Shown: positions 1 through 27,180 of the stretch, one piece after another
Layout of the letters: every line of letters starts with the position of its first letter
How positions within the stretch are numbered: the stretch's first letter is position 1
Position numbers and translations under genes: made by a program
The notes under the pieces: model-generated
Told to the model about the DNA's origin: nothing
The model's input: the letters and a program-made list of their open reading frames with translations, nothing else
The model's database searches: none
From: Fidelibacterota bacterium
GTDB taxonomy: Bacteria > Fidelibacterota > UBA8477 > JABMPR01
Assembly (NCBI GenBank): GCA_016784025.1
Contig: JADHVL010000002.1
Location: 52,490 to 116,489, forward strand
DNA length: 64,000 bases
Direction: 5' to 3'

Positions 1-1
1 T

Positions 2-172
2 GCTCATGTTTCGGGGAACATCGACACAGATGAATTGGGTCTCGTAAAGCAAAGTAATCCACAAGCCCGTCTGGGATTCATTGAAGGTGAACCTCAATTA
101 ATGAAGCTCACTTCGTCCCGGGATTTTGACCTCATTAAACTGTTTTTATCAAACGAATCCATCACTGCGTAA
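2..172 (+). CDS. 3' end of a CDS that enters from upstream of the window (C-terminal 56 aa, ...LIKLFLSNESITA*); product unknown
   Basis: Frame-2 reading frame is open from base 2 to a TAA at 170-172; no recognisable motif. It may belong to the same glycan locus as the downstream genes. Confidence 0.3.
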   Translation, partial: AHVSGNIDTDELGLVKQSNPQARLGFIEGEPQLMKLTSSRDFDLIKLFLSNESITA

Positions 173-180
173 GCTGCTGA

Positions 181-1257
181 ATGCACTCTAGCCAACCCCA
201 ACGTCTGGATTTTATATATAGCGCTGAGAAGGAAAAATCTGCGCTGCTGCCTCTCTACACTCACATGAAACAACACAATAGTGATGTCAGGATGGTTAAA
301 ATTCATCGACGAAGTATTTTTAAAAGTTATATCCGAAACCTTGCTCCCGTTGTGGTGGCCAGCTATGACATGACTTTAGATCGCGTAAAAAAGGCGGGGT
401 GGGTTGGCCGAACTGTGTACGTGGATCATGGGTTGAGTCCCGTCAAATACTATGCTTATCGATATGAAACATTTCACGATATAGACTTACTCTTTTACCC
501 CGGACCCGTTTTCAAAAAAATAATGGAAGTTCTCAACCCTGAGTTTAAGCAGGGTTTGCTTGGTGGACTTCCAAAGATGGATGAATTCATGGGTAGCAAA
601 ATCAATAAGGTGGATTACTGTGCAGAGTTGGGTCTAGATCCACAAAAACCAGTCGTATTGTTCGCGCCAACCTGGGGGGGTAAGTATGAATCAACTTGGG
701 GTATCAATAACGCCAGGTTTTTGTCAGGAATTCCAAACCTGGTAATCAGTCCACATCCTGCTGATTTCAAAGCGGCAAAGCGCTTTAATGCCATCCTCCC
801 TAAACAACCAGGTTCAACCAACGACTTGATCAAGATCGCCGATGTCGTCATCAGTGATGTGTCATCAATAGTAGGTGAGGCAGCCCTATTGGGGAAACCA
901 ACAATTCAACTTGAATTGCCAAATTATCCTGGATGCTTCCCAAATCCGGACAAACGCAAAAAGGGGGATTGGCTAGATGCGACGCGACTTTCTTTCTTCG
1001 CTGAGCAGGCGGATCCTATCAAGCGACCTTTTAAGCTGGCATTTTTAGATGAAGATTGGGTTTTGGGTTATACCAGCAAACCTGAGAACTTAATTGACAC
1101 CGTCGAAAGAGCCCTTTCCGAGCCAGAGCGTTTTGCTGAAAAACGAGCCTACTGGAATGAACAGAACTGCTATATGCCAGATGGAAATACCAATGAAAGA
1201 TTGACCAAAATGATATTTCATTATATTGACACTGGTGTTCTAAAACAATTTGGGTGA
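181..1257 (+). CDS. CDP-glycerol/CDP-ribitol poly(alditol-phosphate) phosphotransferase, TagF/TarL-like
   Basis: LFAPTWGGKYE (TagF 'APTWR' motif) and VISDVSSIVGEAALLGKP (TagF 'ITDYSS' motif) match the Glyphos_transf catalytic C-terminal half. The true start may be an internal Met. Confidence 0.65.
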   Translation: MHSSQPQRLDFIYSAEKEKSALLPLYTHMKQHNSDVRMVKIHRRSIFKSYIRNLAPVVVASYDMTLDRVKKAGWVGRTVYVDHGLSPVKYYAYRYETFHDIDLLFYPGPVFKKIMEVLNPEFKQGLLGGLPKMDEFMGSKINKVDYCAELGLDPQKPVVLFAPTWGGKYESTWGINNARFLSGIPNLVISPHPADFKAAKRFNAILPKQPGSTNDLIKIADVVISDVSSIVGEAALLGKPTIQLELPNYPGCFPNPDKRKKGDWLDATRLSFFAEQADPIKRPFKLAFLDEDWVLGYTSKPENLIDTVERALSEPERFAEKRAYWNEQNCYMPDGNTNERLTKMIFHYIDTGVLKQFG

Positions 1258-1329
1258 GCAGGAAACTCAACTATTTTTTTCGGTGCTGACCAACCAATCC
1301 AATTAAAAGAGAGATAACGTGGGTACTAT

Positions 1330-2625
1330 ATGAATGTAGCAATAATTCTGGCCGGTGGAAAAGGTGAGCGTTTTGGTGGTGAAGTCCCCAAGCAATTTGT
1401 CGTTCTTCACGGACACCGAGTAATGGATTATGCCATAAAAGCCTTCGAGCAGCATCCGGAAATTGATAAAATTATTATTGTGGTACCTGCAAATTGGAAG
1501 GCTGAGCTTGCCTTAGAATATCCACAACATCTGGTCGTCCTGGGAGGAGATACTCGACGAGAGTCATCCTATAATGGCTTAATTGCATGCCCTGAAGATA
1601 CAGATAAGGTGCTATTGCATGATGCTGCCAGACCCTTTTTGGACTATGACACTATTCAAAGAGTACTGGATGCATTAAAGAATTACGATGCTGTCGATAC
1701 AGCAATTGCTGCAACAGATACTATCATAGAAGTAAAAGACAATATCATTACTGACATGCCTGTCAGAGATTTTTTATACCAGGGCCAGACCCCCCAGGGG
1801 TTCAACTACAAGGTCATTCGTAAAGCACATGAAAGCATTTTTGTAGAGACCACTGATGACATACGCCTAGCCATTGAAATGGGTATACAATGTGTGTCCG
1901 TAGCTGGTTCTCAATTCAACTTTAAGATTACCTCTTCCAACGATTTATACATGGCTGAACGAGTCACCCAAATTAATGCAGTAAAAACCGCAGAAACCCC
2001 TCAGTTGGATGGCAAAAAAGTTTTAATTTTTGGTGGAACAGGTGGCATTGGTTCAGCACTAAGTGAGATTCTTAAAAGCCAAAATGCCGATGTAACTGCT
2101 TTGGGCTCAGAGGTGGATCTCACCAAAGACACCCTCCCTGAAAGTCTCACCAGAGACTGGGATATCATTATTCACACTGCAGGTATATTCATAAAGAAAC
2201 CGTTTTCTGAATTGAGTGTGGCCGAATGGGACAAAGTGATGGCCGTGAATTTGCGATCAGCGTTTCTAGTAGCTCAGCTTGCTCGAAAAACAATGAAACA
2301 GGGTGGGTGGCTCACTTTTATTGGATCCAGCTCATCCCATAGAGGACGAACCAGCCAGTCTGTTTACGCCGCTTCAAAAGCAGCACTAAACAATCTTACA
2401 CAATCGCTTGCTGCTGAATTTCTAGATGATAATATCAGGGTGAATTGTATAAATCCCCCGCGGACCGATACACCTATGCGGCACCAGGCTTTTCCTGGAG
2501 AAAATCGCGACTTATTAGCTGACCCTGGACAAGTGGCCAAAGATATTTTAAAATATTGCTCTGGTGAGGAAACGGGTCACATCGTAAACCTCAAATACAC
2601 CACGCAATTCCGGGCAAAGAGATGA
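1330..2625 (+). CDS. Bifunctional CDP-ribitol synthase, Bcs1-like: N-terminal IspD/TarI-type cytidylyltransferase fused to a C-terminal SDR reductase
   Basis: N-terminus ILAGGKGERFGGEVPKQF is the IspD/TarI cytidylyltransferase P-loop. C-terminal half has a Rossmann GGTGGIGSA motif and the SDR catalytic S...YAASKAA segment. Its ATGA stop/start overlaps the next gene. Confidence 0.8.
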   Translation: MNVAIILAGGKGERFGGEVPKQFVVLHGHRVMDYAIKAFEQHPEIDKIIIVVPANWKAELALEYPQHLVVLGGDTRRESSYNGLIACPEDTDKVLLHDAARPFLDYDTIQRVLDALKNYDAVDTAIAATDTIIEVKDNIITDMPVRDFLYQGQTPQGFNYKVIRKAHESIFVETTDDIRLAIEMGIQCVSVAGSQFNFKITSSNDLYMAERVTQINAVKTAETPQLDGKKVLIFGGTGGIGSALSEILKSQNADVTALGSEVDLTKDTLPESLTRDWDIIIHTAGIFIKKPFSELSVAEWDKVMAVNLRSAFLVAQLARKTMKQGGWLTFIGSSSSHRGRTSQSVYAASKAALNNLTQSLAAEFLDDNIRVNCINPPRTDTPMRHQAFPGENRDLLADPGQVAKDILKYCSGEETGHIVNLKYTTQFRAKR

Positions 2626-3713
2626 TTCAAACCCTGGGTAAGGTCTTTAAAGCATTGGACCGCGTAGGCCTGGAAAGTTGCATTGGGGATGAATCATTAT
2701 TTGGATTAGCTGAAGGTAATCTAGAAAAATATATATTCGATCCAGTCATTTATCAGTTCCCCACCAGACTCTCAGGAATCCGCTATATCGCTTTGACAGT
2801 CATCCTGTATTTTCAAGGTATCGTTGTAAAGCCTAAGTGGGTGCATGGAAGTTTTAGACTAAAAATAAGAGGGAAAACTGATACTGGCAGGAAGGCTGCT
2901 AATTTCATTTTTTTAATGCGACTAAAAAAAACACCTGATCATCTAGGTATATACGAAAATAACCGATCCTGCGTTTTCCCTGAGTCGGCCATGAGACCGC
3001 GGGAAGATTTCCCTTATAAGGATATAATTATTAAAACGCCCCCTCATCTGCACCAGTTTTCTACCGACTTCAAAAAACAACTTTTTTCAAATACCTATAG
3101 AACACACCCCACTAACTTTGACCAACAGACTGCTGATCAGGCAGAATCCATGCTTTTCCGGATTGCTGACATTCTAAATACCCAGGGAAGTCATTGGTGG
3201 CTTGAAGGGGGTACACTTCTTGGACTATTCCGAGATGGTAAATTATTGGATTGGGATCATGATATCGATCTTGGTCTCAAGTTTGAATCTGACGCGCAAA
3301 TTTCAAAGCTGATCCTTGAACTGAAAAAAACTCCCTACTACATCAAAATCTTAGACTTCCCCCAGAAGGAGGGTCTCTGGAACCTTGGTAACATCCGCCT
3401 GATAAAAATTTATCCACGACGTTTCTATTTTTTTCACACAGATCTCTGTCTTGATCTCTTTGTCTTTTATCGGGAAGCGTTTGAAAACGAAACTGATCCG
3501 GTTTACAAGTATGTTGTGCATCAGAGAAACGGATATCATTCGGCCTCCATTCTCGATGATTTAACAGATTTGTTCCATAAAGGTCATCGTCTTGGTCGGC
3601 CAGAGCAAACGGAAACTTTCTTGGCCAATAAGTATGGTGATAATTGGAGTACCCCTGTAAAAGAGTGGCATGTAGCCATTGATGATAAATCTATCCTCAA
3701 TAACATGGATTAG
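2622..3713 (+). CDS. LicD-family (fukutin/FKRP-fold) phospho-alcohol transferase
   Basis: WWLEGGTLLGLFRDGKLLDWDHDIDLGL matches the LicD nucleotidyltransferase-fold core. The N-terminal ~180 aa are unassigned, with a possible TM at YIALTVILYFQGIVV. Translationally coupled to the CDP-ribitol synthase. Confidence 0.7.
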   Translation: MIQTLGKVFKALDRVGLESCIGDESLFGLAEGNLEKYIFDPVIYQFPTRLSGIRYIALTVILYFQGIVVKPKWVHGSFRLKIRGKTDTGRKAANFIFLMRLKKTPDHLGIYENNRSCVFPESAMRPREDFPYKDIIIKTPPHLHQFSTDFKKQLFSNTYRTHPTNFDQQTADQAESMLFRIADILNTQGSHWWLEGGTLLGLFRDGKLLDWDHDIDLGLKFESDAQISKLILELKKTPYYIKILDFPQKEGLWNLGNIRLIKIYPRRFYFFHTDLCLDLFVFYREAFENETDPVYKYVVHQRNGYHSASILDDLTDLFHKGHRLGRPEQTETFLANKYGDNWSTPVKEWHVAIDDKSILNNMD

Positions 3714-3724
3714 GTCTGAGGCGA

Positions 3725-4357
3725 ATGCATACAATCGATTTATCATACCTACCTCAATTTTTAAAAAATGGGGTGTCTAAAAAAACCATCATTATAGGGA
3801 ACGGCCCCAGTGCAGCTGGGCACGCATTGGGCAAAGAGATTGATGACTTTGAGCAGATCATTCGCATTAATAATTATGTTACCCATAACATGGAAACCCA
3901 TGTTGGATCTCGAACAGATATCTGGGTCAATGGTGCCAATCAGGGTTTAAAGCGTCGTTCTGATATCCCTGAGAATATATTGGTGATGATTCCCCCCGTA
4001 GTTTTAAAGCATAAAGGTGATACCATACATCCTCGCATTACCAAACGACTTGGGACAAAAAATTATGCACTTCTACCAATAGAGATCATGTCTGAAATGG
4101 AATCAAGCTGTGGTCTTGATCGACCGACAACCGGATTCTTTGCCATTTATTTCTTTTACCTCTTGGGTCTTGACCTGACGCTTCACGGTTTCGATTTTTT
4201 TGTCGGTTCAACTGCTCATTATTTTGATAGTCCCCTTAAACGCTGGCTCAAAGAAAAGGGGCTCATTCGCAAAGCAGGAAAACATGATGTGAGTGGAGAA
4301 AAGGAATTTGTTGAGTCTCTTATCGGGCAGGAAAAAATAAAGCTTCTGACCGGTTAA
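3725..4357 (+). CDS. Cst-like (GT42 / DUF115 MAF-type) putative sialyl/nonulosonate transferase, short form
   Basis: IIIGNGPSAAGHALGKEIDDFEQIIRINNY resembles the Campylobacter Cst-II N-terminal 'IAGNGPSLKEID...FDVFRCNQ' CMP-sugar binding region. At 210 aa it is shorter than Cst-II. Confidence 0.45.
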   Translation: MHTIDLSYLPQFLKNGVSKKTIIIGNGPSAAGHALGKEIDDFEQIIRINNYVTHNMETHVGSRTDIWVNGANQGLKRRSDIPENILVMIPPVVLKHKGDTIHPRITKRLGTKNYALLPIEIMSEMESSCGLDRPTTGFFAIYFFYLLGLDLTLHGFDFFVGSTAHYFDSPLKRWLKEKGLIRKAGKHDVSGEKEFVESLIGQEKIKLLTG

Positions 4358-5256
4358 TGTCCGCGTTTCAAGGTCAGCAGTACCAGTCCTGAAATCGTAA
4401 TTACACCTCCTACAATCACATTCAAGGATACGATCTCACCAAAAAACAACCAGGCTAGAATCGATGCTAAAATTGGTTCTCCGAAAGGCATGGCTCCAAC
4501 AATTGTGGGCCGTATATACCTGACTGCATAGTTCATACTGTTATGCCCTATCAGGGTAGGCAAAATGACCAGGCCCAACAACCATTTGACATCGCTGGAT
4601 GAAAATTTCATATCGATACCTAGTCCCAGGATTACTCCTATCAGAGTCAAGGCAGCAAACAAGTAAAGCCAACGGGTATACATAATATTGGTAATATCCC
4701 TGCGTACTCGTTGACCTATAAGAAGCACAACTGACATGAAGGCTGAGCTGGCCAAAGCATAGAGATTTCCTGTGGTTGCCTCAGTTCCCCAATCAAACCC
4801 AGAACCTTGAACAATGAAGGCCCCAATAATTGCGATCCACAACCCCAGCAAGGCAGCTAAAGGCAACTTGTGCTTAAGAACGAACCGTTCATAAATAAGC
4901 GTAAAGATGGGAGCCATGGTCGCGAAGAGGGTGGCGTTTGCGATTGAAGTAAGTTTTATGGCTGAATAAAAAAATGCGAAATGTAATGCCAGGAATATGC
5001 CTGCAATGATAATTGCAGGGAATTTAGCAGTCTCTAGAGGTTTCTGGGGCTGGATGATACCGTGGGTCCATAGCATCGTGGAAGCACCGGCCATTCGCCA
5101 AAATGCGATTGTGAGTGCCGCCATTTCCGGGAGAAAACGAGCAAGCGGACCACCAAAGCTGACACCCAAAAGTCCAAATGCGAGGATGAAATAAACTTTA
5201 TTATTCATAGGCTTGAACATAAACCAGGTGAAGGATTCGGACACGTGCTGATTCAT
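4354..5256 (-). CDS. EamA/DMT-superfamily transporter (about 10 TM)
   Basis: Highly hydrophobic 300-aa protein with two repeated 5-TM halves, typical of the EamA duplication. It sits on the opposite strand inside the glycan locus. Confidence 0.65.
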   Translation of the reverse strand: MNQHVSESFTWFMFKPMNNKVYFILAFGLLGVSFGGPLARFLPEMAALTIAFWRMAGASTMLWTHGIIQPQKPLETAKFPAIIIAGIFLALHFAFFYSAIKLTSIANATLFATMAPIFTLIYERFVLKHKLPLAALLGLWIAIIGAFIVQGSGFDWGTEATTGNLYALASSAFMSVVLLIGQRVRRDITNIMYTRWLYLFAALTLIGVILGLGIDMKFSSSDVKWLLGLVILPTLIGHNSMNYAVRYIRPTIVGAMPFGEPILASILAWLFFGEIVSLNVIVGGVITISGLVLLTLKRGH

Positions 5257-5338
5257 GCCATCCCCACCATATCAGACTCAAGGGGTAAGTCGTTAAAATT
5301 GTGGGCTGTGATGGGCATCTCTCCATATATATTGCAGG

Positions 5339-6016
5339 ATGTCAATTTTTTGCATAATTCCAGCTCGTGGTGGCTCCAAGGGTGTTCCACATAAAAATAT
5401 TGCACCGTTCCTGGAGCAACCCTTGATAAGTCACTCTATCAAGTACGCCTTGGAATCCAGCTTGGTTGACAGGGTATTTGTGTCTACCGATGATGAACAG
5501 ATTACAGAAATATCCAGAAGTGATGGAGCTGAAGTCATCCCGAGACCCGCAGAACTTGCTGGTGATTCGGCGACTACCGAATCCGCTATTTCACATGCAA
5601 TCGAGTGGTGGCAAGAACAGAATTTGAATCCAACAATCATTGTTTTGCTCCAGGCTACCAGTCCGCTTAGGCCCAATGGCTCTTTGGACAATGCTCTAGA
5701 GAAGTTTCAAGCAGAAGGTTTCGATTCTTTACTCAGCATCTCTCCCACCCACAGATTTTTCTGGAGGGTTGACGAAAAAGAAGCACATGCCGAGTATGAT
5801 TTTATGAATCGACCAAGACGTCAAGATATGACAGAGGCTGATATCAGATATGTTGAAAATGGTTCCGTTTACATTTTTACATCAGACCATTTCAAGCGCA
5901 CTGGAAATAGACTTGGAGGGAGAATCGGATATACCATTTTTCCAGAAGAGTACAGTCCTGAAATAGATACACCGAGCGATTTTTTATTGCTGGAAAAAAT
6001 TGCTGAAAATTTATAA
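5339..6016 (+). CDS. neuA: CMP-nonulosonic acid synthetase (acylneuraminate cytidylyltransferase, NeuA/KdsB family)
   Basis: N-terminal IIPARGGSKGVPHKNI is the NeuA-family signature; length 225 aa. Confidence 0.8.
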   Translation: MSIFCIIPARGGSKGVPHKNIAPFLEQPLISHSIKYALESSLVDRVFVSTDDEQITEISRSDGAEVIPRPAELAGDSATTESAISHAIEWWQEQNLNPTIIVLLQATSPLRPNGSLDNALEKFQAEGFDSLLSISPTHRFFWRVDEKEAHAEYDFMNRPRRQDMTEADIRYVENGSVYIFTSDHFKRTGNRLGGRIGYTIFPEEYSPEIDTPSDFLLLEKIAENL

Positions 6017-6039
6017 AGATAGATCGTTTTACTAAAATA

Positions 6040-7101
6040 TTGGAGGTTGCTTTGCCAACTTTACAACTAGGCTCACATTGGGTAGGTAATAGTGAGCCAA
6101 CCTATATCATCGCTGAAATTGGTATCAATCACCAGGGTGAGGTGGAAATTGCAAAAAGGCTGATTCAAGAAGCGGCTGATGCAGGAGCCAATGCGGTTAA
6201 ATTTCAAAAGCGCAGTATAAAGCGCATCCTGACCCACGAAGGTCTGGAGATGCCCTATGACAATCGTAATTCATTTGGTAAAACCTATGGTGAGCATAAA
6301 AAAGCTCTGGAGCTTTCTGAGGATGACTATCAGGAACTCTTGAGTTTCGCCGCTGAACATAAAGTTGACTTTATCGCTTCTGGATGGGATGAAGAAAGTA
6401 TCGATTTTCTAGATACTTTAGGTGTCCCTTTTTTCAAAATGGCTTCAGCAGATTTGACCAACATACCATTGCTCATACATACGGCAAAAAAGAACAAGCC
6501 CATGATTCTATCAACCGGCATGGCTAACATGGAAATGGTAGAAACGGCTGTGAACGCCGTCAAGCCATTCGATGTGCCTCTATGCGTTCTACAGTGTACA
6601 TCGACATATCCATCAGTATTTGAAGAGGTTAATCTTGGTGTGATTCATACCTTCAAACAAAGATTTCCTGATGCAGTGATTGGCTATTCAGGGCACGAAT
6701 TAGGTATCGCTATCACTGAAGCGGCTGTAGCTCTTGGTGCTAAAATTGTTGAACGTCACTTTACCCTTGATCGTACCATGAAAGGTGGTGATCATGCCGC
6801 CTCCCTTGAACCAGGTGGCTTTTCAAAACTGGTTCGGGATATCCGCCATATTGAAGCGGCCATGGGTGGTTCATCCAAGCATGTACAGGAATCAGAAGCT
6901 CCCATTTTCAAAAAATTAGCTAAAAGTGTTGTCTCACAGGTAGTGATTCCTTCAGGGACTGTTCTTACAAGAGACATGCTAACAACTAAGGGTCCAGGAA
7001 CCGGTATTTCACCTGCTCGGATGGATGAGCTATTAGGAAAAATGGTTATCAAGGACATCGCCGCAGACGTTGTACTCAAGGATGAAGACATCAACTGGTA
7101 A
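6040..7101 (+). CDS. neuB: Nonulosonic acid (Neu5Ac/KDN 9-phosphate) synthase, NeuB family with C-terminal SAF domain
   Basis: YIIAEIGINHQGEVEIAKRLIQEAADAGANAVKFQ is the NeuB PEP-condensing core, followed by an SAF-like C-terminus. The start is probably TTG at 6040 or 6050, as there is no ATG. Confidence 0.85.
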   Translation: MEVALPTLQLGSHWVGNSEPTYIIAEIGINHQGEVEIAKRLIQEAADAGANAVKFQKRSIKRILTHEGLEMPYDNRNSFGKTYGEHKKALELSEDDYQELLSFAAEHKVDFIASGWDEESIDFLDTLGVPFFKMASADLTNIPLLIHTAKKNKPMILSTGMANMEMVETAVNAVKPFDVPLCVLQCTSTYPSVFEEVNLGVIHTFKQRFPDAVIGYSGHELGIAITEAAVALGAKIVERHFTLDRTMKGGDHAASLEPGGFSKLVRDIRHIEAAMGGSSKHVQESEAPIFKKLAKSVVSQVVIPSGTVLTRDMLTTKGPGTGISPARMDELLGKMVIKDIAADVVLKDEDINW

Positions 7102-7113
7102 TCAGGAGTTCTA

Positions 7114-7611
7114 ATGATATCTGAACAACTTCAGGCCAAAGCTCAAAAGATCAAATTGGTAGTAACTGATATAGATGGTGTCTGGACAGATGCAAAAATC
7201 TATTACACAGGAGAAGGGGAGTTACTAAAGGCATTTAGCTATTATGATGGTATGGGAACCGCCCTTCTTACTAAGGCCAATATCAGAACAGCCATCATTA
7301 CTGGCGAAAATTCAGAGCCTGTTGCCCGAAGAGCTGAGAAACTCAAAATTGAGGATGTTTTTCTTGGAGTTCATGATAAGCTTGAAGCCTTTGAGTCTCT
7401 TCTGGAAAAATACCAGCTCCACCCATCGGAAGTAGCCTATATCGGTGATGATCTAAATGACTATAATGTTATGCAGGTAGCCGGTCTCACTGCAGCACCT
7501 TCCAGCACGCCAGCCTTCCACATTCTCAAACCAGACATTTTGTTAAGCCGCGCTGGTGGTGATGGTGCCTTTAGAGAGTTTGCTGATCTCATCATAGCAT
7601 CTCAGCGATGA
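7114..7611 (+). CDS. KdsC-family HAD phosphatase (Kdo-8-P / Neu5Ac-9-P / KDN-9-P phosphatase type)
   Basis: VVTDIDGVWTD (HAD motif I, DxDG) and IGDDLNDYNVM (motif IV); 165 aa is typical of KdsC-type C0 HAD phosphatases. Confidence 0.75.
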   Translation: MISEQLQAKAQKIKLVVTDIDGVWTDAKIYYTGEGELLKAFSYYDGMGTALLTKANIRTAIITGENSEPVARRAEKLKIEDVFLGVHDKLEAFESLLEKYQLHPSEVAYIGDDLNDYNVMQVAGLTAAPSSTPAFHILKPDILLSRAGGDGAFREFADLIIASQR

Positions 7612-8879
7612 AAACGCTTTTCTATTCTCTCTATAATCTTCTTCTTTATTTAGTTTTACCCATACTATGGGTAAGCGCCTACTTTAATGATAAGCTTGCC
7701 GGGAGTTTATCAGGACAGAAAGATATAACTTCGAGAGTTTTACGTTTCAAAGATAAAGTTAAGTCTGATCCCAAACCAATTATCTGGACTCACTCAGCCT
7801 CAGCAGGTGAGTTCGAGCAGATGCGTCCTGTATTAAGCAGACTCTCTGAACTGGATGTTTACATCTACCAGACATTCACCTCTGCCACCATTTTCTACAA
7901 AGCATCACACAATAAAACCTTCCATGGTGTGAGCTTTCTTCCATGGGACCTATATACACGAGTGAATCATTTCGTTACACTTCTAGAACCTGATTTGTTT
8001 ATCAACACAAGGCACGATATCTGGCCCAATCTCCACTTCTCACTTCGTAATAACCAGATTAGAAATATTCTCATCAATGCCAACCTTTATCAGAATTCGA
8101 AACGGCTACTTCCTGGCCTGCGTGGGATCAATGCATTGGTTTTTAATCAAATAGATCACATATATACTGGATCTACTACTCTCAAATCATTGTTAGAGCA
8201 AATATATGCTGGACAAATAGATGTCGTGGGTGACTCACGGTTCGATCAAGTTCACGAACGCTCGATAAAAAACAAGGAAGTGTTGATAACTAATGATTTA
8301 ATAGCTGACCGACGGGTCGTTATATATGGATCTGTGGGTGATAGCGATTTAAAGATTATTACTGATGCCATTGCTCAAGTCCCAGGTGACAAGGCTTTTA
8401 TGCATATTATTGTTCCCCACGAAATTGCTGAACGAGATCTCATTCCTTGGGAGGCTGAGCTTTTCCGACAAAAGATTAAATCAATACGAAAAAGTGAACT
8501 TGCGCAGTTCAAAAATGAATCTGTGATCATCTGGGACAGTGTGGGTCAATTGGCAGACCTGTATAAATACGCCGATCTGGCATTTATTGGAGCTGGTTTT
8601 GGCGCAGGCGTACACTCTGTAACTGAAGCTGCCATATATAAAGTACCTAGTGCCCATGGCCCCAATTATGATATTCTAGCCGAAGCCATTGATCTAGTTG
8701 AGAAAGGACTATCAGCAGTAGTAAATGATGTTGTTGATCTCACAACCTTCTTGTCAATGCCTGAGGAAATCATTTCTGAAATTTCGGTGCAAATTGAGGT
8801 ATACGTTAACGAGGGACTTGGTGCTACTGATAGAATAATAAAGAGCGAACCTCTACTTCGTTCTCTTGCTCCACAATAA
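7608..8879 (+). CDS. GT30 glycosyltransferase, Kdo-transferase (WaaA/KdtA) homolog
   Basis: N-terminal TM followed by IWTHSASAGEFEQMRPVL, cf. the WaaA 'WxHxxSVGE' N-domain motif. Length 423 aa matches WaaA. Start overlaps the stop of the phosphatase. Confidence 0.6.
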   Translation: MKTLFYSLYNLLLYLVLPILWVSAYFNDKLAGSLSGQKDITSRVLRFKDKVKSDPKPIIWTHSASAGEFEQMRPVLSRLSELDVYIYQTFTSATIFYKASHNKTFHGVSFLPWDLYTRVNHFVTLLEPDLFINTRHDIWPNLHFSLRNNQIRNILINANLYQNSKRLLPGLRGINALVFNQIDHIYTGSTTLKSLLEQIYAGQIDVVGDSRFDQVHERSIKNKEVLITNDLIADRRVVIYGSVGDSDLKIITDAIAQVPGDKAFMHIIVPHEIAERDLIPWEAELFRQKIKSIRKSELAQFKNESVIIWDSVGQLADLYKYADLAFIGAGFGAGVHSVTEAAIYKVPSAHGPNYDILAEAIDLVEKGLSAVVNDVVDLTTFLSMPEEIISEISVQIEVYVNEGLGATDRIIKSEPLLRSLAPQ

Positions 8880-9088
8880 AATTAAGCAACAATTCCTGTC
8901 CAATATCTGGAGGGAATGTCACGAGAGATTCACCATCAATACATTCAATCAGCACTAATCTATTGATCCCAATCTGTTTTCCAATGTTATGGCAGAAAAC
9001 ACATGTTTTAATAAAACTTCTGAATGTCATCACATAGTTCTCAATTGTTTTATGAATAATTTAAATCATGTTTATTAAAATGAAATGG

Positions 9089-9128
9089 CCTTTCTATTTC
9101 CCATGGCACTCCAATGGAAATAGAAAGG
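9089..9128. terminator. 13-bp perfect inverted repeat (CCTTTCTATTTCC...GGAAATAGAAAGG), likely a bidirectional terminator between convergent genes
   Basis: Read directly in the sequence; lies between the convergent GT30 gene and tpx. Confidence 0.45.
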
Positions 9129-9160
9129 CGTTTAAATATTTACCATTCTGATGAAAAGTC

Positions 9161-9661
9161 TTATGCCAGTTTGGCGACGACCTCGTCATAATTTGGTTCG
9201 TCAGAAACAACAGGTACCTGCTGGGTGTAGGTTACTGTTCCGGCACTGTCCACCAGGATCACAACTCTAGACAAAAACCCTTTCATTGGACCATCAATAA
9301 CCTGCAATCCATAATCTTTTCCAAACTGTCCTGTTTCAAAATCAGAAAGAGTGATGACATTCTCCAGGCCTTCAGCGCCACAAAACCTTGATTGGGCAAA
9401 TGGCGTATCACGCGATATGCACAATACTTTTGTGTCTGGGAGCTTTCCTGCAAGTTCGTTAAAATAACGGACAGAAGCTGCACAGGTCCCAGTGTCAAGA
9501 CTGGGGAAGATATTTAGTACAAGGCGTTGTCCTTTAAAATCGACAATGCTTACTCTAGAGAGATCTTTGGCTACCAATTCAAAGTCTGCTGCCTTAGATC
9601 CTATCTCAGGTAACTCACCAATAGTGTGAACTGGATTACCACGTAAAGATATTGTTGCCAT
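9161..9661 (-). CDS. tpx: Thiol peroxidase (Tpx, atypical 2-Cys peroxiredoxin)
   Basis: SLDTGTCAASVRYFNE contains the Tpx peroxidatic Cys motif; 166 aa. Confidence 0.85.
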   Translation of the reverse strand: MATISLRGNPVHTIGELPEIGSKAADFELVAKDLSRVSIVDFKGQRLVLNIFPSLDTGTCAASVRYFNELAGKLPDTKVLCISRDTPFAQSRFCGAEGLENVITLSDFETGQFGKDYGLQVIDGPMKGFLSRVVILVDSAGTVTYTQQVPVVSDEPNYDEVVAKLA

Positions 9662-9804
9662 ATTTAATTTTCCTTTATAATTGTTTAAAATACTATTCCT
9701 GTCAATCTAACTCTGAATCAAGTTGCTGAATATTAAAATGCCACAATTAGTTCTTCACTAGGCTTTCAAAGCATCCTCAAAATGCACATGCAACCGTGAG
9801 ACTC

Positions 9805-10233
9805 CTATCGAATCTCCCAATCTTCCACATCACCTTCGATCAGGTTGAAGAGAGGATGAAGCTGTAACTCGATAGTCTCATTCAGCTTATGATATTTACC
9901 CAAGTCCCTCACTCTTAATTTTCCCAACAAATGAGTTTGTTCATAGAATAACTGTCCCGTGGTTACTGCTATAAATTTAGCGTCCACAGATGAGCCTATC
10001 TTGCTCTCATCAAAATGAAACCCACGTTGCTTAGCTTCTTCAAGAACACTAAGGAGATAAGAGTTAATATGGTTTAAGGGGTGATTTGTGGCTTTAAAGC
10101 GATGAAGTTGGGGATGATTCTGATACCCCTTGGTCATGCCTTCCAGGACACGTTTTGCCAACAAAGTTTCTCGCCAGAGAGCGGCCAATCCTTTGCTATC
10201 TAAATACATGGGATGAAGGGACCAAATTCTCAT
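9805..10233 (-). CDS. Pyrimidine-dimer DNA glycosylase (T4 endonuclease V-like, Pyr_excise family)
   Basis: N-terminus MRIWSLHPMYLDSKGLAALWRETLLAKRVL matches the conserved start of bacterial Pyr_excise proteins. Confidence 0.5.
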   Translation of the reverse strand: MRIWSLHPMYLDSKGLAALWRETLLAKRVLEGMTKGYQNHPQLHRFKATNHPLNHINSYLLSVLEEAKQRGFHFDESKIGSSVDAKFIAVTTGQLFYEQTHLLGKLRVRDLGKYHKLNETIELQLHPLFNLIEGDVEDWEIR

Positions 10234-11595: not shown

Positions 11596-13446
11596 TCACT
11601 TCTTACGACTTCGACGTGGACTGATGCCACTCTTTTTTCCACGATCACTACGTCTACCGCCCTGACTCATTCCATATTCTTTTTGCTTGGAAAATTTTTT
11701 CTTTTTTGTTGGCAAAGGAGTTGGCTTTTCTGTAGAAACTTCCAGTTGAACTTTGACGCCTTCATGTTCCTGACCATGCAGCTTGTCAACCAGTGTATTC
11801 ACAACACCCTGTTCAATATCGAAAAAGGCAAACTTCTTCATAATTTCAATGGCACCCACATCAGCTTCATTGGAGTTTAAAGTTTTATTAATTAAACCAA
11901 TCAAGCGCGTTGGTGTTAAATCATTTTTCATCCCCAGATTGATAAACAATCTGGTGAAAGTTTTATGACGGGGGCCTTGCTCTCGCTGGACATCCGGCCT
12001 ATCACCCTGCTTGGTTCTATCTCTTCGGGTGTCTGGCTTATCGCCCCTCTTGTTTCTATCTCGTCGACCTAGGCGTTCCCCACGTTCCGGTTTATCATTA
12101 GCTGAAACGTTAATATCAGTAGCATGCTTGTAATAGGCCAGGAAACGATTGAACTCTGCTGACACAAAATGCTTTATAAGTTCTTCTCGACTCAACCATT
12201 CCAGTTTTTCATAGATGGCTGGCATGAAGGGACCAATTTGCTTTTCGTCAACTTCAACTTTTTCAATTTTATCAATTAGAGAGTATAGCTGCTTGCTACA
12301 AATATCTTTCCCCGTAGGGACAAGTTCTTTGGTGAATTTTAGTTTGAATTTATTTTCTATTGATCTGATTTTTCCAAACTCACGGGTATGAATGATGGCA
12401 ATTGAGATACCATTCTTTCCAGCCCTTCCAGTTCTACCACTTCTATGGATATAAACTTCTGAATCATCAGGTAGGTTGTAGTTAACCACATGGGTGAGAT
12501 CGTTAATATCCAGCCCACGTGCAGCAACATCAGTAGCAACTAGAATCTGTATTTTTTTAGATCGAAATCTTTTCATCACTTCATCGCGTTGTGCCTGTGA
12601 CAATTCACCATGCAGGGCATCGGCATTATAACCGTCATGCATAAATTTATGCGCCACATCCTTGGTCTCTTGCCTTGTTCGACAAAAAACCAGACCATAA
12701 ATGGTTGGATTTGAATCAGCGATTCGCTTCAGAACTTCGTATCTGTTCTTGGCTTGAACCATATAATAAATATGCCTGACGTTCACAGCACCTGTGTTCA
12801 TTTTTGTGGCAGCAATTTCAATAGGATCCTTCATGTAAGTCTTGGTCATCCGCTGCACTTCTTTTGACATGGTCGCTGAAAACAGGAGTGTCTGTTTTGT
12901 AGCTGAAGTCTCGCTCAGGATGGCGTCCAGATCTTCCTTAAAACCCATATTGAGCATCTCATCAGCTTCATCTAAAACCACCCGTTCAACATTCCCCAGG
13001 AGCAATCTTTTTCGCTTAATTAAATCTTTGGCGCGGCCAGGTGTGGCCACGACGATTTGAGCAGATTTTCTGAGTGCTCTAATCTGGGTATCAATAGGGG
13101 CACCACCATACACTGCAACGATACCAATCTCTTTGATTTTTTTAGCGAAATTATTCAAATCCTTCGTAATCTGGATACACAGTTCCCTAGTGGGGCAAAG
13201 AATGAGTGTCTGTGTTCTTTTATCTTCAGGTTTTGTGAGATGTACTGCCGGTAAACCAAAAGCTCCGGTTTTTCCTGTCCCCGTTTGAGCAAAGGCTACT
13301 AGGTCCTGAGTTGAGGTTAATAAGTGTGGAATTGTCTTTTCCTGAATAGGGGTTGGGCTTTCAAAACCTAATTCTTGAATTGCCTGAACAATGTCATCAT
13401 TTAGGCCGAGTTGTGCAAAAACATTCATGGTGATAGTTTGATCCAA
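11596..13446 (-). CDS. deaD: DEAD-box RNA helicase DeaD/CsdA-like with C-terminal DbpA-type RNA-binding domain and an RD/K-rich linker
   Basis: [21 protein letters not shown] and HRSGRTGRAG motifs are present. The 616-aa length with a C-terminal extension is typical of CsdA. Confidence 0.9.
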   Translation of the reverse strand: MDQTITMNVFAQLGLNDDIVQAIQELGFESPTPIQEKTIPHLLTSTQDLVAFAQTGTGKTGAFGLPAVHLTKPEDKRTQTLILCPTRELCIQITKDLNNFAKKIKEIGIVAVYGGAPIDTQIRALRKSAQIVVATPGRAKDLIKRKRLLLGNVERVVLDEADEMLNMGFKEDLDAILSETSATKQTLLFSATMSKEVQRMTKTYMKDPIEIAATKMNTGAVNVRHIYYMVQAKNRYEVLKRIADSNPTIYGLVFCRTRQETKDVAHKFMHDGYNADALHGELSQAQRDEVMKRFRSKKIQILVATDVAARGLDINDLTHVVNYNLPDDSEVYIHRSGRTGRAGKNGISIAIIHTREFGKIRSIENKFKLKFTKELVPTGKDICSKQLYSLIDKIEKVEVDEKQIGPFMPAIYEKLEWLSREELIKHFVSAEFNRFLAYYKHATDINVSANDKPERGERLGRRDRNKRGDKPDTRRDRTKQGDRPDVQREQGPRHKTFTRLFINLGMKNDLTPTRLIGLINKTLNSNEADVGAIEIMKKFAFFDIEQGVVNTLVDKLHGQEHEGVKVQLEVSTEKPTPLPTKKKKFSKQKEYGMSQGGRRSDRGKKSGISPRRSRKK

Positions 13447-23975: not shown

Positions 23976-25598
23976 ATGGAAGCGCATCAAGCCAAACATA
24001 TCATTGTAACAGGGGGTGTCATCTCCGGTCTTGGAAAAGGTATTGCGGCTGCTTCCCTGGGAATGTTGTTGGAGCTAAAGAATAAGAAAGTCACTATCCA
24101 GAAACTGGATCCCTACCTGAATGTTGATCCTGGCACGATGAATCCATTTCAACACGGAGAAGTTTTTGTCCTGGATGATGGAACCGAAACCGATCTGGAT
24201 TTAGGTCACTACGAACGGTTTATTGATGCAGACATGACCAAGGCCAACAACAGTACGGCTGGTAGTATCTACTATGAGGTCCTGGAAAGAGAACGTCGCG
24301 GGGATTACCTCGGTGGAACTGTACAAATCATTCCTCATGTAACTGATGAAATCATTAAAAGAATTGAAAAGCCAGAACGAATTGATCCTGATCTTGATGT
24401 GGTTATCACGGAAATTGGTGGTACGGTTGGTGATATCGAAAGTCTTTCATTTCTTGAGGCAGTGCGCCAATTTCAACAGGCACGTGGTCGTGAGAATGTC
24501 ATCATCCTGCATGTTACCCTTATTCCATACATTGAAGCCAGTGAAGAGCTAAAAACGAAACCCAGTCAGCATTCCGTCATGCGCTTAAGAGAAATCGGTT
24601 TGCAGCCAGATATACTTTTCTGTCGCACACAGCACGAGCTAACAGATGATGTGAGACAGAAACTAGCCCTTTTCACAAATGTAAAACCCAATGCTGTCAT
24701 CCAGGGTCTGGATGCAAAATCAATTTATGAAGTCCCCCTCTTACTGCAAAAAGAACACCTTGCTGGTATTGTTATGGAAAAACTCCAGATGGAAAACGTT
24801 GAGTCTGATACCTCAAAATGGGAACAATTTGTTCATCATATTTTGAATCCAGAAGATGAAATCACAGTGGCCGTCGCAGGTAAATACACCGCCATGGTGG
24901 ATGCATATAAGAGCATCATTGAATCCTTTATTCATTCTGGAGTTGACAATCGCTGTAAAGTGAATATTGAATTTGTGGATGCTGAAGATCTTGAGTCCGA
25001 CTCTGGTTTGGAAAAAGTATTGGGGCATGTCCATGGAATTCTAATTCCCGGTGGTTTTGGCTCACGAGGTATCGAAGGCAAAATTCGGGCGGCTCAATAT
25101 GCCAGAGAAAAGCAAGTCCCGTTTCTGGGCCTGTGTCTCGGCTTGCAGGTAGCAGTCATTGAATACGCAAGGAATATGATGGGTCTTAGCGATGCAGACT
25201 CTGAAGAGTTTTCAGAAACCACTCCTCATCCGGTCATTCACCTCATGCTCTCACAACATCATGTGACCCACAAAGGTGCCAGCATGCGCTTAGGCGCTTA
25301 TGATTGTGTCCTGAAAGAGGGGACCAAAGCTTTCGAGGCCTACGGTGAAGTAAATGTTTCAGAGCGTCATCGTCATCGCTTTGAGGTGAACAATGCCTAT
25401 CGAGATCAATTGGAAAAAGCTGGTATGATCATTTCTGGAGCATCCCCGGATGATGAGCTGGTTGAGATGGTTGAAATAGCAGATCATCCTTGGTTTGTTG
25501 CAACTCAAGCCCACCCTGAGTTCAAGTCCAGAGTAGCTAAAACCCATCCCTTGTTTAAAGATTTTGTGAAAGCATCACTTCATTTTAAGAATCATTAG
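23976..25598 (+). CDS. pyrG: CTP synthase
   Basis: TGGVISGLGKGIAAAS in the synthetase domain and a GLCLGLQ class-I glutamine amidotransferase catalytic Cys; 540 aa. Confidence 0.95.
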   Translation: MEAHQAKHIIVTGGVISGLGKGIAAASLGMLLELKNKKVTIQKLDPYLNVDPGTMNPFQHGEVFVLDDGTETDLDLGHYERFIDADMTKANNSTAGSIYYEVLERERRGDYLGGTVQIIPHVTDEIIKRIEKPERIDPDLDVVITEIGGTVGDIESLSFLEAVRQFQQARGRENVIILHVTLIPYIEASEELKTKPSQHSVMRLREIGLQPDILFCRTQHELTDDVRQKLALFTNVKPNAVIQGLDAKSIYEVPLLLQKEHLAGIVMEKLQMENVESDTSKWEQFVHHILNPEDEITVAVAGKYTAMVDAYKSIIESFIHSGVDNRCKVNIEFVDAEDLESDSGLEKVLGHVHGILIPGGFGSRGIEGKIRAAQYAREKQVPFLGLCLGLQVAVIEYARNMMGLSDADSEEFSETTPHPVIHLMLSQHHVTHKGASMRLGAYDCVLKEGTKAFEAYGEVNVSERHRHRFEVNNAYRDQLEKAGMIISGASPDDELVEMVEIADHPWFVATQAHPEFKSRVAKTHPLFKDFVKASLHFKNH

Positions 25599-25764
25599 GA
25601 GCATCAGGCTTTAGATCCAGTTCGATCCTTTTTTAATAAAAAGAAGTCAATTTCACCAAAAATATATTTAATTTAAAGCCTGAACAGCTAACCCAAACTC
25701 AGTCGAATTCATCATCTTGTGCCGTTGGGCACCAATATCCAATTATCAAATTCAGGAGTATGTC

Positions 25765-26448
25765 ATGCAGGCAAAGACTGTAGCAAGTTCAGGTCATCGA
25801 CAGAGATTAAGAGATCGATTTTTCCAAAATGGGATTGAATCCTTCCATGATTATGAAGTCCTGGAGCTCTTACTCACCCTGGCAACGCCCAGGAAAGACA
25901 TGAAGCCCCAGGCCAAAGAACTTATCCGACGATTTGGAAGTCTGGCTGGCGTATTGGAAGCTCCTACCTCAGTCCTCCTCGATGTAAAAGGGATGGGCCA
26001 TACAAATGTTTTTGTACTCAAACTTCCCCACGCAGTTGGCCGGAGGTACTTATTTGAACAGGCAAAGGGCAAAGATTATCTGAGATCCAGTAAAACAGTG
26101 AGGGATTATCTAACCCATAACTTACGTGAAAGAAATCGTGAGATTTTTATGGTCATCTTCCTGGATGGTCAAAATCAGATTATCAAAATGGAGGAGCTTT
26201 TTACTGGATCGCTCACCACTTCGGCTATCTACCCAAGGGAAGTCATTCAAAAGGTCTTGAGCTATGATGCAGCCAGTGTCATTCTGGTTCACAACCACCC
26301 CTCAGGTTCACTCACCCCCTCTGGTAGTGACCGGGCTGTGACTAAAAAACTGAAAGTAGCCCTGGCTTCCATTGATGTAGAAATTCTTGATCATCTCATT
26401 GTAGGGGGCAACGATTTTTTCTCATTCGCAGATCATCGACTTTTGTAA
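25765..26448 (+). CDS. radC: RadC-family JAB/MPN (JAMM) domain protein
   Basis: ILVHNHPSGSLTPSGSDRAVT is an intact JAMM motif (HxH...S..D) preceded by an HhH-like N-domain. The in-frame Met at 25765 is preferred over the track start at 25717. Confidence 0.85.
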   Translation: MQAKTVASSGHRQRLRDRFFQNGIESFHDYEVLELLLTLATPRKDMKPQAKELIRRFGSLAGVLEAPTSVLLDVKGMGHTNVFVLKLPHAVGRRYLFEQAKGKDYLRSSKTVRDYLTHNLRERNREIFMVIFLDGQNQIIKMEELFTGSLTTSAIYPREVIQKVLSYDAASVILVHNHPSGSLTPSGSDRAVTKKLKVALASIDVEILDHLIVGGNDFFSFADHRLL

Positions 26449-26631
26449 GATCCCTGAGAAATTTTAATCGCAGCCAATAAAAGCTGGAAGCATATTCAAC
26501 GTGATGTCCAGTATTGTATCTTCTTATTTTATCTAAACCTACGACTCTACCAAACCATGTTTTATATTGACAATTATTAATTGTGATATATATTCTCATC
26601 ATTAAGATTCAATGACGACCGGGGAGATTGT

Positions 26632-27180
26632 TTGAGAAATATATATCTAATTCTATTGGTGGCAGGTTTATCATCTTGTGGTTTGCCCCCCAAAGCGGAT
26701 TCAAATCCGCACCACTCATCAAGGCGAGCTCACACAGGTAAATACATCACTGAACAGACACATGTTGCCGGTAGTCGCAATCTCTTTGTCCAGCCTGACG
26801 GCAAACATTGTCTTAACTCCAGTAAAGCAGTGACAGAATATTTTAATGAGCGCCATCGAGAACGTAATCGAGATGCTGTTTTTATTATTCTCCTTGATGG
26901 AAAAAACCAGGTTTTAAATATGGATGAGTTAGGCTCAGAAATCTTCACAGCACCATCAATTTACATGTCGGAAGTGACACAAAAAGCAACCGACATTGAA
27001 GCCACCTCTGTGATTCTTGTACAATGCCTCCCCACACGATCATCAACACCCTACAATAACGACCGAGAGCTTTCAAAAAATTTGAAACTGGCTCTTGGAA
27101 CCATCAATGTGGGCTTGCTTGATCATCTTATTATTGGCCGCAATAAGTGCTTTTCCTTTGCTGACAATCAACTTCTATAA
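26632..27180 (+). CDS. Degenerate RadC-like JAB-domain paralog with a lipoprotein signal peptide (predicted pseudo-enzyme)
   Basis: About 45% identical to the C-terminal 120 aa of the upstream RadC, but the JAMM motif is replaced by QCLPTRSSTPYNNDRELS. N-terminus MRNIYLILLVAGLSSCG has an LSSC lipobox. TTG start at 26632 with GGGGAG 5 nt upstream. Confidence 0.5.
   Translation: MRNIYLILLVAGLSSCGLPPKADSNPHHSSRRAHTGKYITEQTHVAGSRNLFVQPDGKHCLNSSKAVTEYFNERHRERNRDAVFIILLDGKNQVLNMDELGSEIFTAPSIYMSEVTQKATDIEATSVILVQCLPTRSSTPYNNDRELSKNLKLALGTINVGLLDHLIIGRNKCFSFADNQLL

Follow-up and report, generated by a model that had tools for sequence, protein, structure and literature searches.

What do the nonulosonate genes of a Fidelibacterota (Marinimicrobia, SAR406) bacterium make, and to which transferase is the product handed? 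The question is raised by a 64,000-nucleotide stretch of contig JADHVL010000002.1 (assembly GCA_016784025.1, positions 52,490 to 116,489, forward strand), which was analyzed as a whole and is referred to here as the window. An initial annotation had described a three-gene module at 5339-7611, in which a NeuB-family synthase is followed by a KdsC-like haloacid dehalogenase (HAD) phosphatase. These coordinates begin exactly where the first gene starts and end exactly at the stop codon of the third, and the synthase and phosphatase were confirmed by Pfam and NCBIfam matches. The extent of the module did not hold, since the operon runs on into a fourth gene. As read from the gene layout, 5339-8879 is one four-gene operon, and its fourth gene encodes a divergent member of glycosyltransferase family 30 (GT30), which includes WaaA, the transferase of 3-deoxy-D-manno-oct-2-ulosonate (Kdo). 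This fourth gene is the most distinctive feature of the operon. In our reading, to which we assign a probability of about 0.78, the operon makes a cytidine monophosphate (CMP)-activated nonulosonate by a 9-phosphate route, and this sugar is passed to the glycosyltransferase of the Kdo-transferase family.

The first three genes are co-directional and fill 5339-7611 in the order CMP-nonulosonate synthetase, NeuB-family synthase and KdsC-fold HAD phosphatase. A gap of 35 nt containing GGAGG lies ahead of the synthase and one of 12 nt containing AGGAG ahead of the phosphatase, and the phosphatase stop codon overlaps the ATG of the GT30-like gene as ATGA (7608-7611). This spacing and overlap indicate that the genes are packed as an operon, with the GT30-like gene predicted to be translationally coupled to the phosphatase. 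On its 3' side the operon is closed by a convergent thiol peroxidase gene, and an EamA gene on the opposite strand separates it from an upstream plus-strand set of TagF-like, IspD-SDR, LicD and GT29-like genes. A promoter and terminator scan of 1-9800 gave counts no higher than the shuffle background. The synthase can be read as a 353-aa open reading frame (ORF) from TTG 6040 or as 349 aa from TTG 6052, which lies 5 nt after GGAGG. Only the 349-aa form is on record in metagenomes and in metagenome-assembled genomes (MAGs) at NCBI, and TTG 6052 is probably the true start. Residue for residue, the operon proteins occur there on metagenome contigs of up to 338 kb and in MAGs that bear the names 'FCB group bacterium' or 'Candidatus Marinimicrobia/Neomarinimicrobiota' (MBC8376727-32). 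Their public labels are 'N-acetylneuraminate synthase', 'HAD-IIIA hydrolase' or 'KdsC' and, for the GT30-like gene at NCBI, 'hypothetical protein'; JGI labels the phosphatase YrbI/KdsC and the GT30-like protein Kdo transferase.

The class of the synthase determines which route is followed. In BLASTP comparisons, it shares 49.4% identity over 340 residues (340 bits) with NANS, the human N-acetylneuraminic acid (Neu5Ac) 9-phosphate synthase (NP_061819.2), 39.8% with the 9-phosphate synthetase of 2-keto-3-deoxy-D-glycero-D-galacto-nononate (KDN) from the alga Prymnesium parvum, and 32.9% (172 bits) with Neisseria meningitidis NeuB. Its score on the NeuB model TIGR03569 was 340 bits, below the cut-off of 399.65, and it also stayed below the cut-off of the PseI equivalog. 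The class signature of the synthase reads KFQKR, SGWDE, CTS, GYSGHE and DRTMKGGDHAASLEP, and the KGGDHAASLEP stretch belongs to this signature of the sugar-6-phosphate class. In the alignment, KFQK(R/S), S.(W/M)D, CTS, G(Y/F)SGH and K-G-x-D-H-(A/S)-A-S-L-E-P are common to the synthase, human and mouse NANS and the algal enzyme, whereas N. meningitidis NeuB has KHQTH, TPFS, CTN, GLSDHT and PGPDIVCSMNP at these positions. The metal- and phosphoenolpyruvate (PEP)-binding residues E22, H215, H236 and D247 are invariant in the alignment, including both NeuB and NANS. The signature positions adjoin residues that we take to be the N-acetylmannosamine (ManNAc) contacts of the N. meningitidis enzyme, namely Gln55, Thr110 and Asn184. 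The P. parvum enzyme has been shown biochemically to use mannose 6-phosphate (Man-6-P) and not mannose (Wagstaff et al. 2018, PMC6200933).

A signature survey gave the same picture on a wider sample. GTDB genomes were scanned with the NANS-type alignment, which yielded 80 loci from many phyla, and 59 NANS-type and 11 NeuB-type synthases were compared. A KdsC-type phosphatase, either free-standing or fused to NeuA, was found within 3 kb of 35 of the 59 NANS-type synthases versus none of the 11 NeuB-type synthases (Fisher p = 4e-4). A WecB/NeuC-like epimerase was found within 6 kb of 3/59 NANS-type versus 8/11 NeuB-type synthases (p = 3e-6), and the epimerase-linked homologs carry KFQTF, G.SDHT and PGPDH. 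Taken together, the assignment of the synthase to the sugar-6-phosphate-dependent NeuB subclass, that of NANS and KDN-9-phosphate (KDN-9-P) synthase, is well supported by sequence comparison.

Two kinds of gene fusion were observed among the loci collected. NeuA-type enzymes fused to a KdsC-fold HAD domain, about 410 aa long and carrying the Glu56 and Lys67 markers described below, occur mostly in Chloroflexi (L021 4106-5284 and L040 8655-9902; further loci are L064, L066, L068, L070, L073, L075, L086, L091 and L092). They adjoin short NANS-type synthases of about 295 aa that lack the SAF domain, and animal CMAS has the same NeuA-HAD domain architecture. NeuB-family synthases fused to extra domains, 586-751 aa in length, were found in several phyla (L021-L024, L032, L037, L059 and L062).

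The phosphatase scored 151.8 bits on TIGR01670 (KdsC subfamily; cut-off 107), a broad model that covers BT1713-type enzymes as well as KdsC. On the KdsC equivalog PRK09484 it reached 151.4 bits, below the cut-off of 208. Its ortholog in L014, a related Marinimicrobia locus, scored 180.2 on the NCBIfam KDN-9-P phosphatase model NF058599, reaching the cut-off of 180, and 141 on the KdsC model, below 208. The phosphatase aligns without gaps to BT1713, the KDN-9-P phosphatase of Bacteroides thetaiotaomicron (PDB ID 3e81), with D19/D21 of the HAD DxD motif on D10/D12 and E65/R73/K76 on Glu56/Arg64/Lys67; this match gives 121 bits, versus 64 bits for the Kdo-8-phosphate phosphatase of the same species (4hgn). 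Glu56 and Lys67 reportedly separate KDN-9-P from Kdo-8-phosphate phosphatases. At positions 56/64/67, the KdsC residues are R/R/T in Escherichia coli and R/R/E in Aquifex. Among KdsC-fold phosphatases beside or fused into NeuB-family operons (80-plus loci), Glu56 is present in 41/41 and Lys67 in 38/41. The E/R/K triad was found in all nine relatives retrieved (by hmmalign for L012-L019, by tblastn and the same pattern for L020) and in all 66 metagenome orthologs beside GT30-like genes that cover the marker positions. The 9-phosphononulosonate type of the phosphatase is well supported at the level of residues. It is also matched (E 6e-15) by PDB 3ewi, presumably the C-terminal domain of mouse CMAS.

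The cytidylyltransferase scored about 56 bits on KdsB models, whose cut-offs are 193-281. Its best solved relative is 9t4z, 'PpNeuA' (E 2.6e-31, 112 bits), and over the aligned stretch that structure agrees with the sequence given for the CMP-Kdn synthetase of P. parvum in the supplement of PMC6200933. The next PDB matches are Vibrio cholerae NeuA and mouse CMAS (100 bits), and KdsB structures reached at most 35 bits. By these scores, the enzyme is nearer to NeuA/CMAS than to KdsB.

A classical route would call for a uridine diphosphate N-acetylglucosamine (UDP-GlcNAc) 2-epimerase. Pfam searches of every called gene in the window and about 12 kb beyond found no Epimerase_2, NanE, ROK kinase, DAHP_synth_1 (KdsA) or SIS-type KdsD. 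There is no second CTP_transf_3 gene (KdsB) in the window, and an IspD gene just upstream of it is a marginal CTP_transf_3 match. E. coli KdsA, KdsD, WecB and LpxK gave no tblastn match in the 64-kb window, and no WecB-like match was found in the window or in L001-L020. No neuC-like epimerase lies in the operons of nine related genome loci, and a single WecB-like match was found among 80 metagenome loci (see below).

We infer the substrates, the KDN product and the donor and acceptor of the GT30-like enzyme as follows. The NANS-type synthase would condense PEP with a hexose 6-phosphate, most likely Man-6-P, to give KDN-9-P; alternatively, ManNAc 6-phosphate (ManNAc-6-P) would be the substrate and Neu5Ac-9-phosphate the product. 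The KdsC-fold HAD phosphatase would take off the 9-phosphate, and the NeuA-type enzyme would form the CMP-sugar. The sugar would then be placed on a cell-envelope glycolipid, probably lipid A-core, by the GT30-like enzyme, the GT29-like enzyme or both. That the operon makes a CMP-activated nonulosonate through a 9-phosphate is, in our judgment, highly probable. The initial annotation had proposed such a route, and the synthase class, the phosphatase triad, the cytidylyltransferase relative and an operon free of epimerase genes support it. Its suggestion of a phosphorylated hexose-6-phosphate substrate agrees with the signature common to NANS and the Man-6-P-specific P. parvum enzyme; when aligned to characterized synthases, as had been proposed, the pocket and signature were those of the sugar-6-phosphate class, unlike ManNAc-type NeuB. 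The claim that the window has no UDP-GlcNAc 2-epimerase was borne out by Pfam and tblastn, and a neuC-like epimerase was likewise missing from the operon and from those of the nine relatives.

The link to GT30 extends across the phylum. The order synthase-phosphatase-GT30 was kept in three contigs (36-54% GT30 identity), six GTDB genomes and the window, i.e., in 10/10, with the phosphatase and GT30 genes adjacent and on one strand in each. A metagenome scan with the GT30 alignment gave 80 further loci (L100-L179) with 30-84% GT30 identity. Of the 61 metagenome loci that offer enough sequence, 60 have the phosphatase gene directly upstream of the GT30 gene and on the same strand, L163 being the exception; overall, the phosphatase-GT30 pair is found in 70/71 Marinimicrobia loci, nearly always with the synthase. 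For the synthase, 46 metagenome loci extend far enough, and 41 of them have a NANS-type gene no more than 2.3 kb upstream. In a deeper Marinimicrobia lineage, the order is neuB-neuA-phosphatase-GT30. All operon synthases whose motif regions are covered are NANS-type, and one further NeuB-family ORF differs in signature. Because GT29 genes are present in some related loci only, GT30 is the constant transferase partner.

The surroundings of the operon in the relatives point to lipopolysaccharide (LPS). In L014, the operon abuts the genes for LpxL, MsbA, RseP, Dxr, LpxA, LpxC-FabZ, LpxD, Skp and BamA, and in L017 it abuts those for RseP, Dxr, LpxA and LpxC-FabZ among the ORFs scanned. L018 and L019 each have an MsbA-like gene upstream. 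Adjacency to lipid A genes therefore occurs in at least two lineages, with lpxD in one of them (L014). The GT30 linkage and these neighborhoods lead us to conclude, with moderate confidence, that the nonulosonate is probably destined for LPS. Our literature searches found no report of a phylum-wide coupling to GT30 and lipid A genes. Searches on sialic acid or Kdo in Marinimicrobia and on KDN in the LPS inner core returned nothing relevant beyond Wagstaff 2018, Petit 2018 and the description of Fidelibacter, which reports an LPS-like layer only.

Two further genes were seen in these neighborhoods. A DUF3108 gene lies directly 3' of the GT30-like gene in deeper-branching lineages (L012 11217-11933, L014 11272-12045, L017 5524-6246 and 43 of L100-L179), and none follows the GT30 gene of the window. 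Directly upstream of the synthase, L012 encodes a BNR/Asp-box (Sortilin-Vps10-like) repeat protein (7231-8376); BNR repeats are typical of sialidases.

Whether the GT30-like protein itself uses the nonulosonate is the next question. Both of its halves align to Aquifex WaaA (2xci, E 3e-12; GT-B architecture). The family has 351 detectable members, and the organism-named matches are all from Marinimicrobia or the FCB group, except for one Lentisphaeria MAG. The motifs HAASAGE, TRHD[IL]WPN and GVHSVTE characterize its 110 full-length members. Here the E-x-E-x-W-P of WaaA is replaced by T-R-H-D-[IL]-W-P, with R, H and D in 110/110 members, and G-G-H-N is replaced by G-V-H-S, with S in 104/110. The acidic and amide residues at these positions matter in WaaA, so the motif change is suggestive but not proof. 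Among five NCBIfam WaaA equivalogs, the best score was 117 bits versus a cut-off of 363, and the protein stayed below the cut-offs of all five.

The strongest competing explanation accepts the 9-phosphate pathway but regards the GT30-like protein as the ordinary WaaA of the phylum, which would add Kdo made with kdsA and kdsB located elsewhere in the genome. The GT29-like or another transferase would then attach the nonulosonate at a more distal site, either in the LPS core or on a ribitol-phosphate polymer, and the tight linkage would reflect only a shared LPS-core operon. We consider this a serious contender, with a chance somewhat short of even. The GT30-like protein retains the SxGE, WPN, RFD and H..xE motifs as well as an N-terminal hydrophobic segment, MKTLFYSLYNLLLYLVLPILW, that resembles MLELLYTALLYLIQPLIW of E. 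coli WaaA. Its gene is found near lipid A genes, and a GT29-like candidate sialyltransferase is at hand within the window cluster. Moreover, the WaaA family evolves fast, and low scores on narrow equivalogs are therefore weak evidence of a new function. However, in L014 the LpxA, LpxC-FabZ and LpxD proteins of the same genome pass their equivalog cut-offs and GT30 stands at 130 versus 363 (36%), and the motif changes (E-x-E-x-WP to R-H-D-x-WP, HN to HS) are family-specific. In L012 and L015-L017, where the trio is kept, no GT29 gene was found within about 10 kb (in L017, within the 2.7 kb available upstream), nor was one found in many metagenome loci that keep the synthase-phosphatase-GT30 trio. 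Nor were kdsA, kdsD or a true kdsB seen in about 1.1 Mb of Marinimicrobia flanks, which all sample one neighborhood, a flank being about 10 kb on either side of the query gene and not a whole genome. The bolder form of our own reading, in which the GT30-like enzyme would itself transfer KDN or a nonulosonate to lipid A and KDN would replace or accompany Kdo there, we put forward only tentatively and regard as rather unlikely. Under that proposal, the synthase, the 9-phosphate phosphatase and NeuA would stand in for KdsA, KdsC and KdsB.

For the identity of the sugar, we lean toward KDN rather than Neu5Ac. No gene forming ManNAc-6-P was found in the window or the operons, and in about 90 related loci one WecB-like gene was the only such match; Man-6-P is a universal metabolite; and the best-fitting profile of the phosphatase is the KDN-9-P phosphatase model. 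The initial annotation had named KDN as a possibility, which gains from the missing ManNAc-6-P genes and the phosphatase model and stays a suggestion. Neu5Ac could instead be formed by an animal-type Neu5Ac-9-phosphate route, with ManNAc-6-P supplied from elsewhere by a reverse NanE reaction or by an epimerase and a kinase. Three observations agree with this: the synthase is nearest to animal NANS (45-50% identity, the best among the sampled bacterial sequences), it retains the SAF/AFP domain, which is missing from the Man-6-P-specific enzyme of P. parvum, and a GT29 'sialyltransferase' homolog is present. Set against the points for KDN, we nevertheless consider Neu5Ac unlikely as the product. 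A further point against Neu5Ac is that human NANS also makes KDN-9-P; its Met42 affects the preference between KDN and Neu5Ac (both according to the title of Hao 2006 as cited in PMC6200933).

A more conventional explanation is a plain KdsC and WaaA, with NeuA and NeuB belonging to a classical ManNAc route whose NeuC is encoded elsewhere, or to a legionaminic or pseudaminic acid route. The JGI labels and the TIGR01670 score of the phosphatase fit this explanation, but the signature of the synthase is NANS-type and not NeuB-, LegI- or PseI-type, with scores below the NeuB and PseI cut-offs; the phosphatase has Glu and Lys, not Arg and Thr/Glu, and falls short of the KdsC equivalog; and NeuC is not present in the window. 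A pseudaminic or legionaminic acid product was considered in its own right and rejected on the signature, the profile scores and the lack of accessory genes for either sugar in the window. We therefore regard this explanation as highly improbable. Least credible of all is a NeuB-family enzyme that replaces KdsA non-orthologously (PEP plus arabinose 5-phosphate) in an unconventional Kdo pathway: the four genes would fill the KdsA, KdsC, KdsB and WaaA roles beside lipid A genes and kdsA was unseen in every flank, but the 49% identity and the signature common to enzymes using hexose 6-phosphates, the 9-phosphononulosonate-type phosphatase markers and flanks in which no KdsD (arabinose-5-phosphate isomerase) was seen all argue otherwise.

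Several points weigh against the reading that we prefer, a 9-phosphate-route nonulosonate passed to the GT30-like enzyme. A phosphatase-GT30 pair would look alike in a kdsC-waaA operon. The phosphatase of the window scored 168.5 bits on NF058599, just below the cut-off, and its overall identity of 41% to E. coli KdsC and 42% to BT1713 does not discriminate between the two. The support here for the Glu56/Lys67 rule comes from the comparative pattern, with only two bona fide KdsC sequences in the comparison. The position of Met42 in NANS is Glu in the window synthase and Lys in its relatives and is thus uninformative; because it varies within the phylum, we rejected this residue as a discriminator between KDN and Neu5Ac. 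Finally, the absence of neuC, nanE, kdsA, kdsB and a canonical waaA refers to the window and the flanks sampled.

The features of the operon and its upstream neighbors are listed in Table 1.

Table 1. Genes of the four-gene operon and of the adjoining upstream cluster, in window coordinates
Feature	Coordinates	Strand	Basis of assignment
CMP-nonulosonate synthetase (NeuA / CMAS N-domain type), 225 aa	5339-6016	+	Pfam CTP_transf_3, E 2.3e-24
NANS-type nonulosonate-9-phosphate synthase (NeuB family), 349 aa	6052-7101	+	Pfam NeuB, E 3e-80, and SAF domain
Nonulosonate-9-phosphate phosphatase (C0-type HAD, KdsC fold), 165 aa	7114-7611	+	Profile scores, DxD motif, Glu/Arg/Lys triad
Divergent GT30 (Kdo-transferase/WaaA-like) glycosyltransferase, 423 aa	7608-8879	+	Pfam Glycos_transf_N (PF04413), E 3.7e-27
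Minimal GT29 sialyltransferase-like protein, 210 aa	3725-4357	+	Pfam Glyco_transf_29, E 5.4e-16
EamA/DMT-family transporter	4354-5256	-	Pfam EamA, E 7e-31; weak TPT match
TagF-like glycerophosphotransferase	181-1257	+	Pfam Glyphos_transf
IspD-SDR fusion, CDP-ribitol synthase-like	1330-2625	+	Pfam IspD and adh_short
LicD-family phosphotransferase	2622-3713	+	Pfam LicD

In the GT29-like protein, which NCBI names 'glycosyltransferase family 29 protein', stretches resembling the L, S and VS sialylmotifs are recognizable and align to ST3Gal-I. A second candidate user of the CMP-sugar, it has homologs in L013, L014 and L018-L020 as well as in many metagenome loci. According to Petit et al. 2018 (PMC5811610), GT29 among bacteria was found in Proteobacteria only. 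The EamA gene is kept on the opposite strand just upstream of neuA in L013, where it lies between GT29 and neuA, and in L015. The eukaryotic CMP-sialic acid transporter also belongs to the drug/metabolite transporter (DMT) superfamily. The polyol-phosphate genes (TagF-like, IspD-SDR and LicD) adjoin the nonulosonate genes; the same set is found in L013 and, without LicD, in L014. A stand-alone IspD is encoded at L001 3435-4121, near polyol-phosphate glycopolymer genes, and the L014-L017 clusters include genes for large membrane sulfatase/LtaS-like phosphotransferases.

Further from the operon, a cytidine triphosphate synthase gene (pyrG) followed by RadC is located at 23976-25598, 15 kb away, and in L013 pyrG/RadC (11799-13436) are separated from the GT30 gene by one small gene (gatC). 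Two RadC-like genes lie side by side in the window (25717-27180). A Pyr_excise gene (9805-10233, minus strand), encoding a pyrimidine-dimer glycosylase of the phage T4 endonuclease V type, is located just downstream of the operon beside two DEAD-box helicase genes. A 1081-aa protein encoded at 38265-41510 (minus strand) has a lamin-tail domain (LTD) as its sole Pfam match.

The three-enzyme module itself is not new, having been characterized in B. thetaiotaomicron and P. parvum and being widespread in bacteria according to our survey. What is new is the phylum-wide GT30 partner of a 9-phosphononulosonate module. Lipid A is taken to be joined to the rest of LPS almost universally by Kdo, and GT30 enzymes are treated as Kdo-specific. 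In the loci sampled, the only visible GT30 gene of the phylum appears translationally coupled to a 9-phosphononulosonate pathway, and this coupling makes the universality of Kdo directly testable, e.g., in the cultured Fidelibacter multiformis. The GT30 neighborhood hints at an unusual outer-membrane sugar. If the bolder reading is true, a nine-carbon KDN-type sugar would be the lipid A-proximal sugar of LPS, replacing Kdo or standing beside it, across a globally abundant marine phylum, and the enzyme would be the first GT30 with a non-Kdo donor to our knowledge. Even on a conservative view, the animal-type phosphate route remains a conserved, core-like trait of SAR406 and not a matter of strain-variable capsule genes, and the closest bacterial relatives of animal NANS among those sampled fall in Marinimicrobia. 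The public annotation of the operon genes is wrong or empty. Glu/Lys versus Arg in the phosphatase and KFQKR/GYSGHE versus KFQTF/SDHT in the synthase, traced over about 150 loci, are usable annotation markers.

Among known systems, the KDN pathway of B. thetaiotaomicron consists of BT1714 (KDN-9-P synthase), BT1713 (phosphatase) and BT1715 (CMP-KDN synthetase) (Wang et al. 2008, as cited in PMC6200933). The operon has the same three enzyme types, the BT1713 triad is conserved in its phosphatase, and a UDP-GlcNAc 2-epimerase is lacking. However, the Bacteroidota synthases in L023 and L027, which precede BT1713 orthologs and are probably BT1714-type, are 586-590-aa fusions with a mixed signature (GLSDHT), whereas the synthase here is NANS-like and 349 aa long. 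The operon here also runs into GT30, and the partial flanks sampled from Bacteroidota showed no such gene. The animal Neu5Ac pathway (NANS, NANP, CMAS and GT29) is similar in its synthase (49% identity to human NANS, with a common SAF/AFP domain), in a cytidylyltransferase resembling the N-domain of mouse CMAS and in the GT29 homolog of the cluster. It differs in that no GNE-type epimerase/kinase is found here and the genes are organized as a bacterial operon in an LPS setting; in addition, the KdsC-fold HAD phosphatase is not a NANP homolog. In P. parvum, the Kdn-9-P synthetase has the same class signature and, among solved structures, the CMP-Kdn synthetase comes closest to the window NeuA, but the synthase of the alga is without the SAF domain, and a KdsC-type phosphatase was not found there (PMC6200933).

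The classical NeuC-NeuB-NeuA route of E. coli K1 and N. meningitidis shares the NeuB fold, the metal/PEP residues and a NeuA-type cytidylyltransferase with the operon, but here NeuC is missing, a phosphatase is present, and KFQKR/GYSGHE/KGGDH stand in place of the KHQTH/GLSDHT/PGPD of N. meningitidis NeuB. The KdsA-KdsC-KdsB-WaaA pathway is alike in its overall logic, i.e., PEP condensation with a sugar phosphate, a KdsC-fold phosphatase, CMP activation and a GT30 enzyme, with lipid A genes nearby in the Marinimicrobia relatives. It differs as follows: the synthase here has the NeuB fold and not that of KdsA, the phosphatase carries Glu/Lys and not Arg with Thr/Glu, the cytidylyltransferase is NeuA-type, and the GT30 enzyme scores below all five WaaA equivalogs and has RHD in place of ExE.

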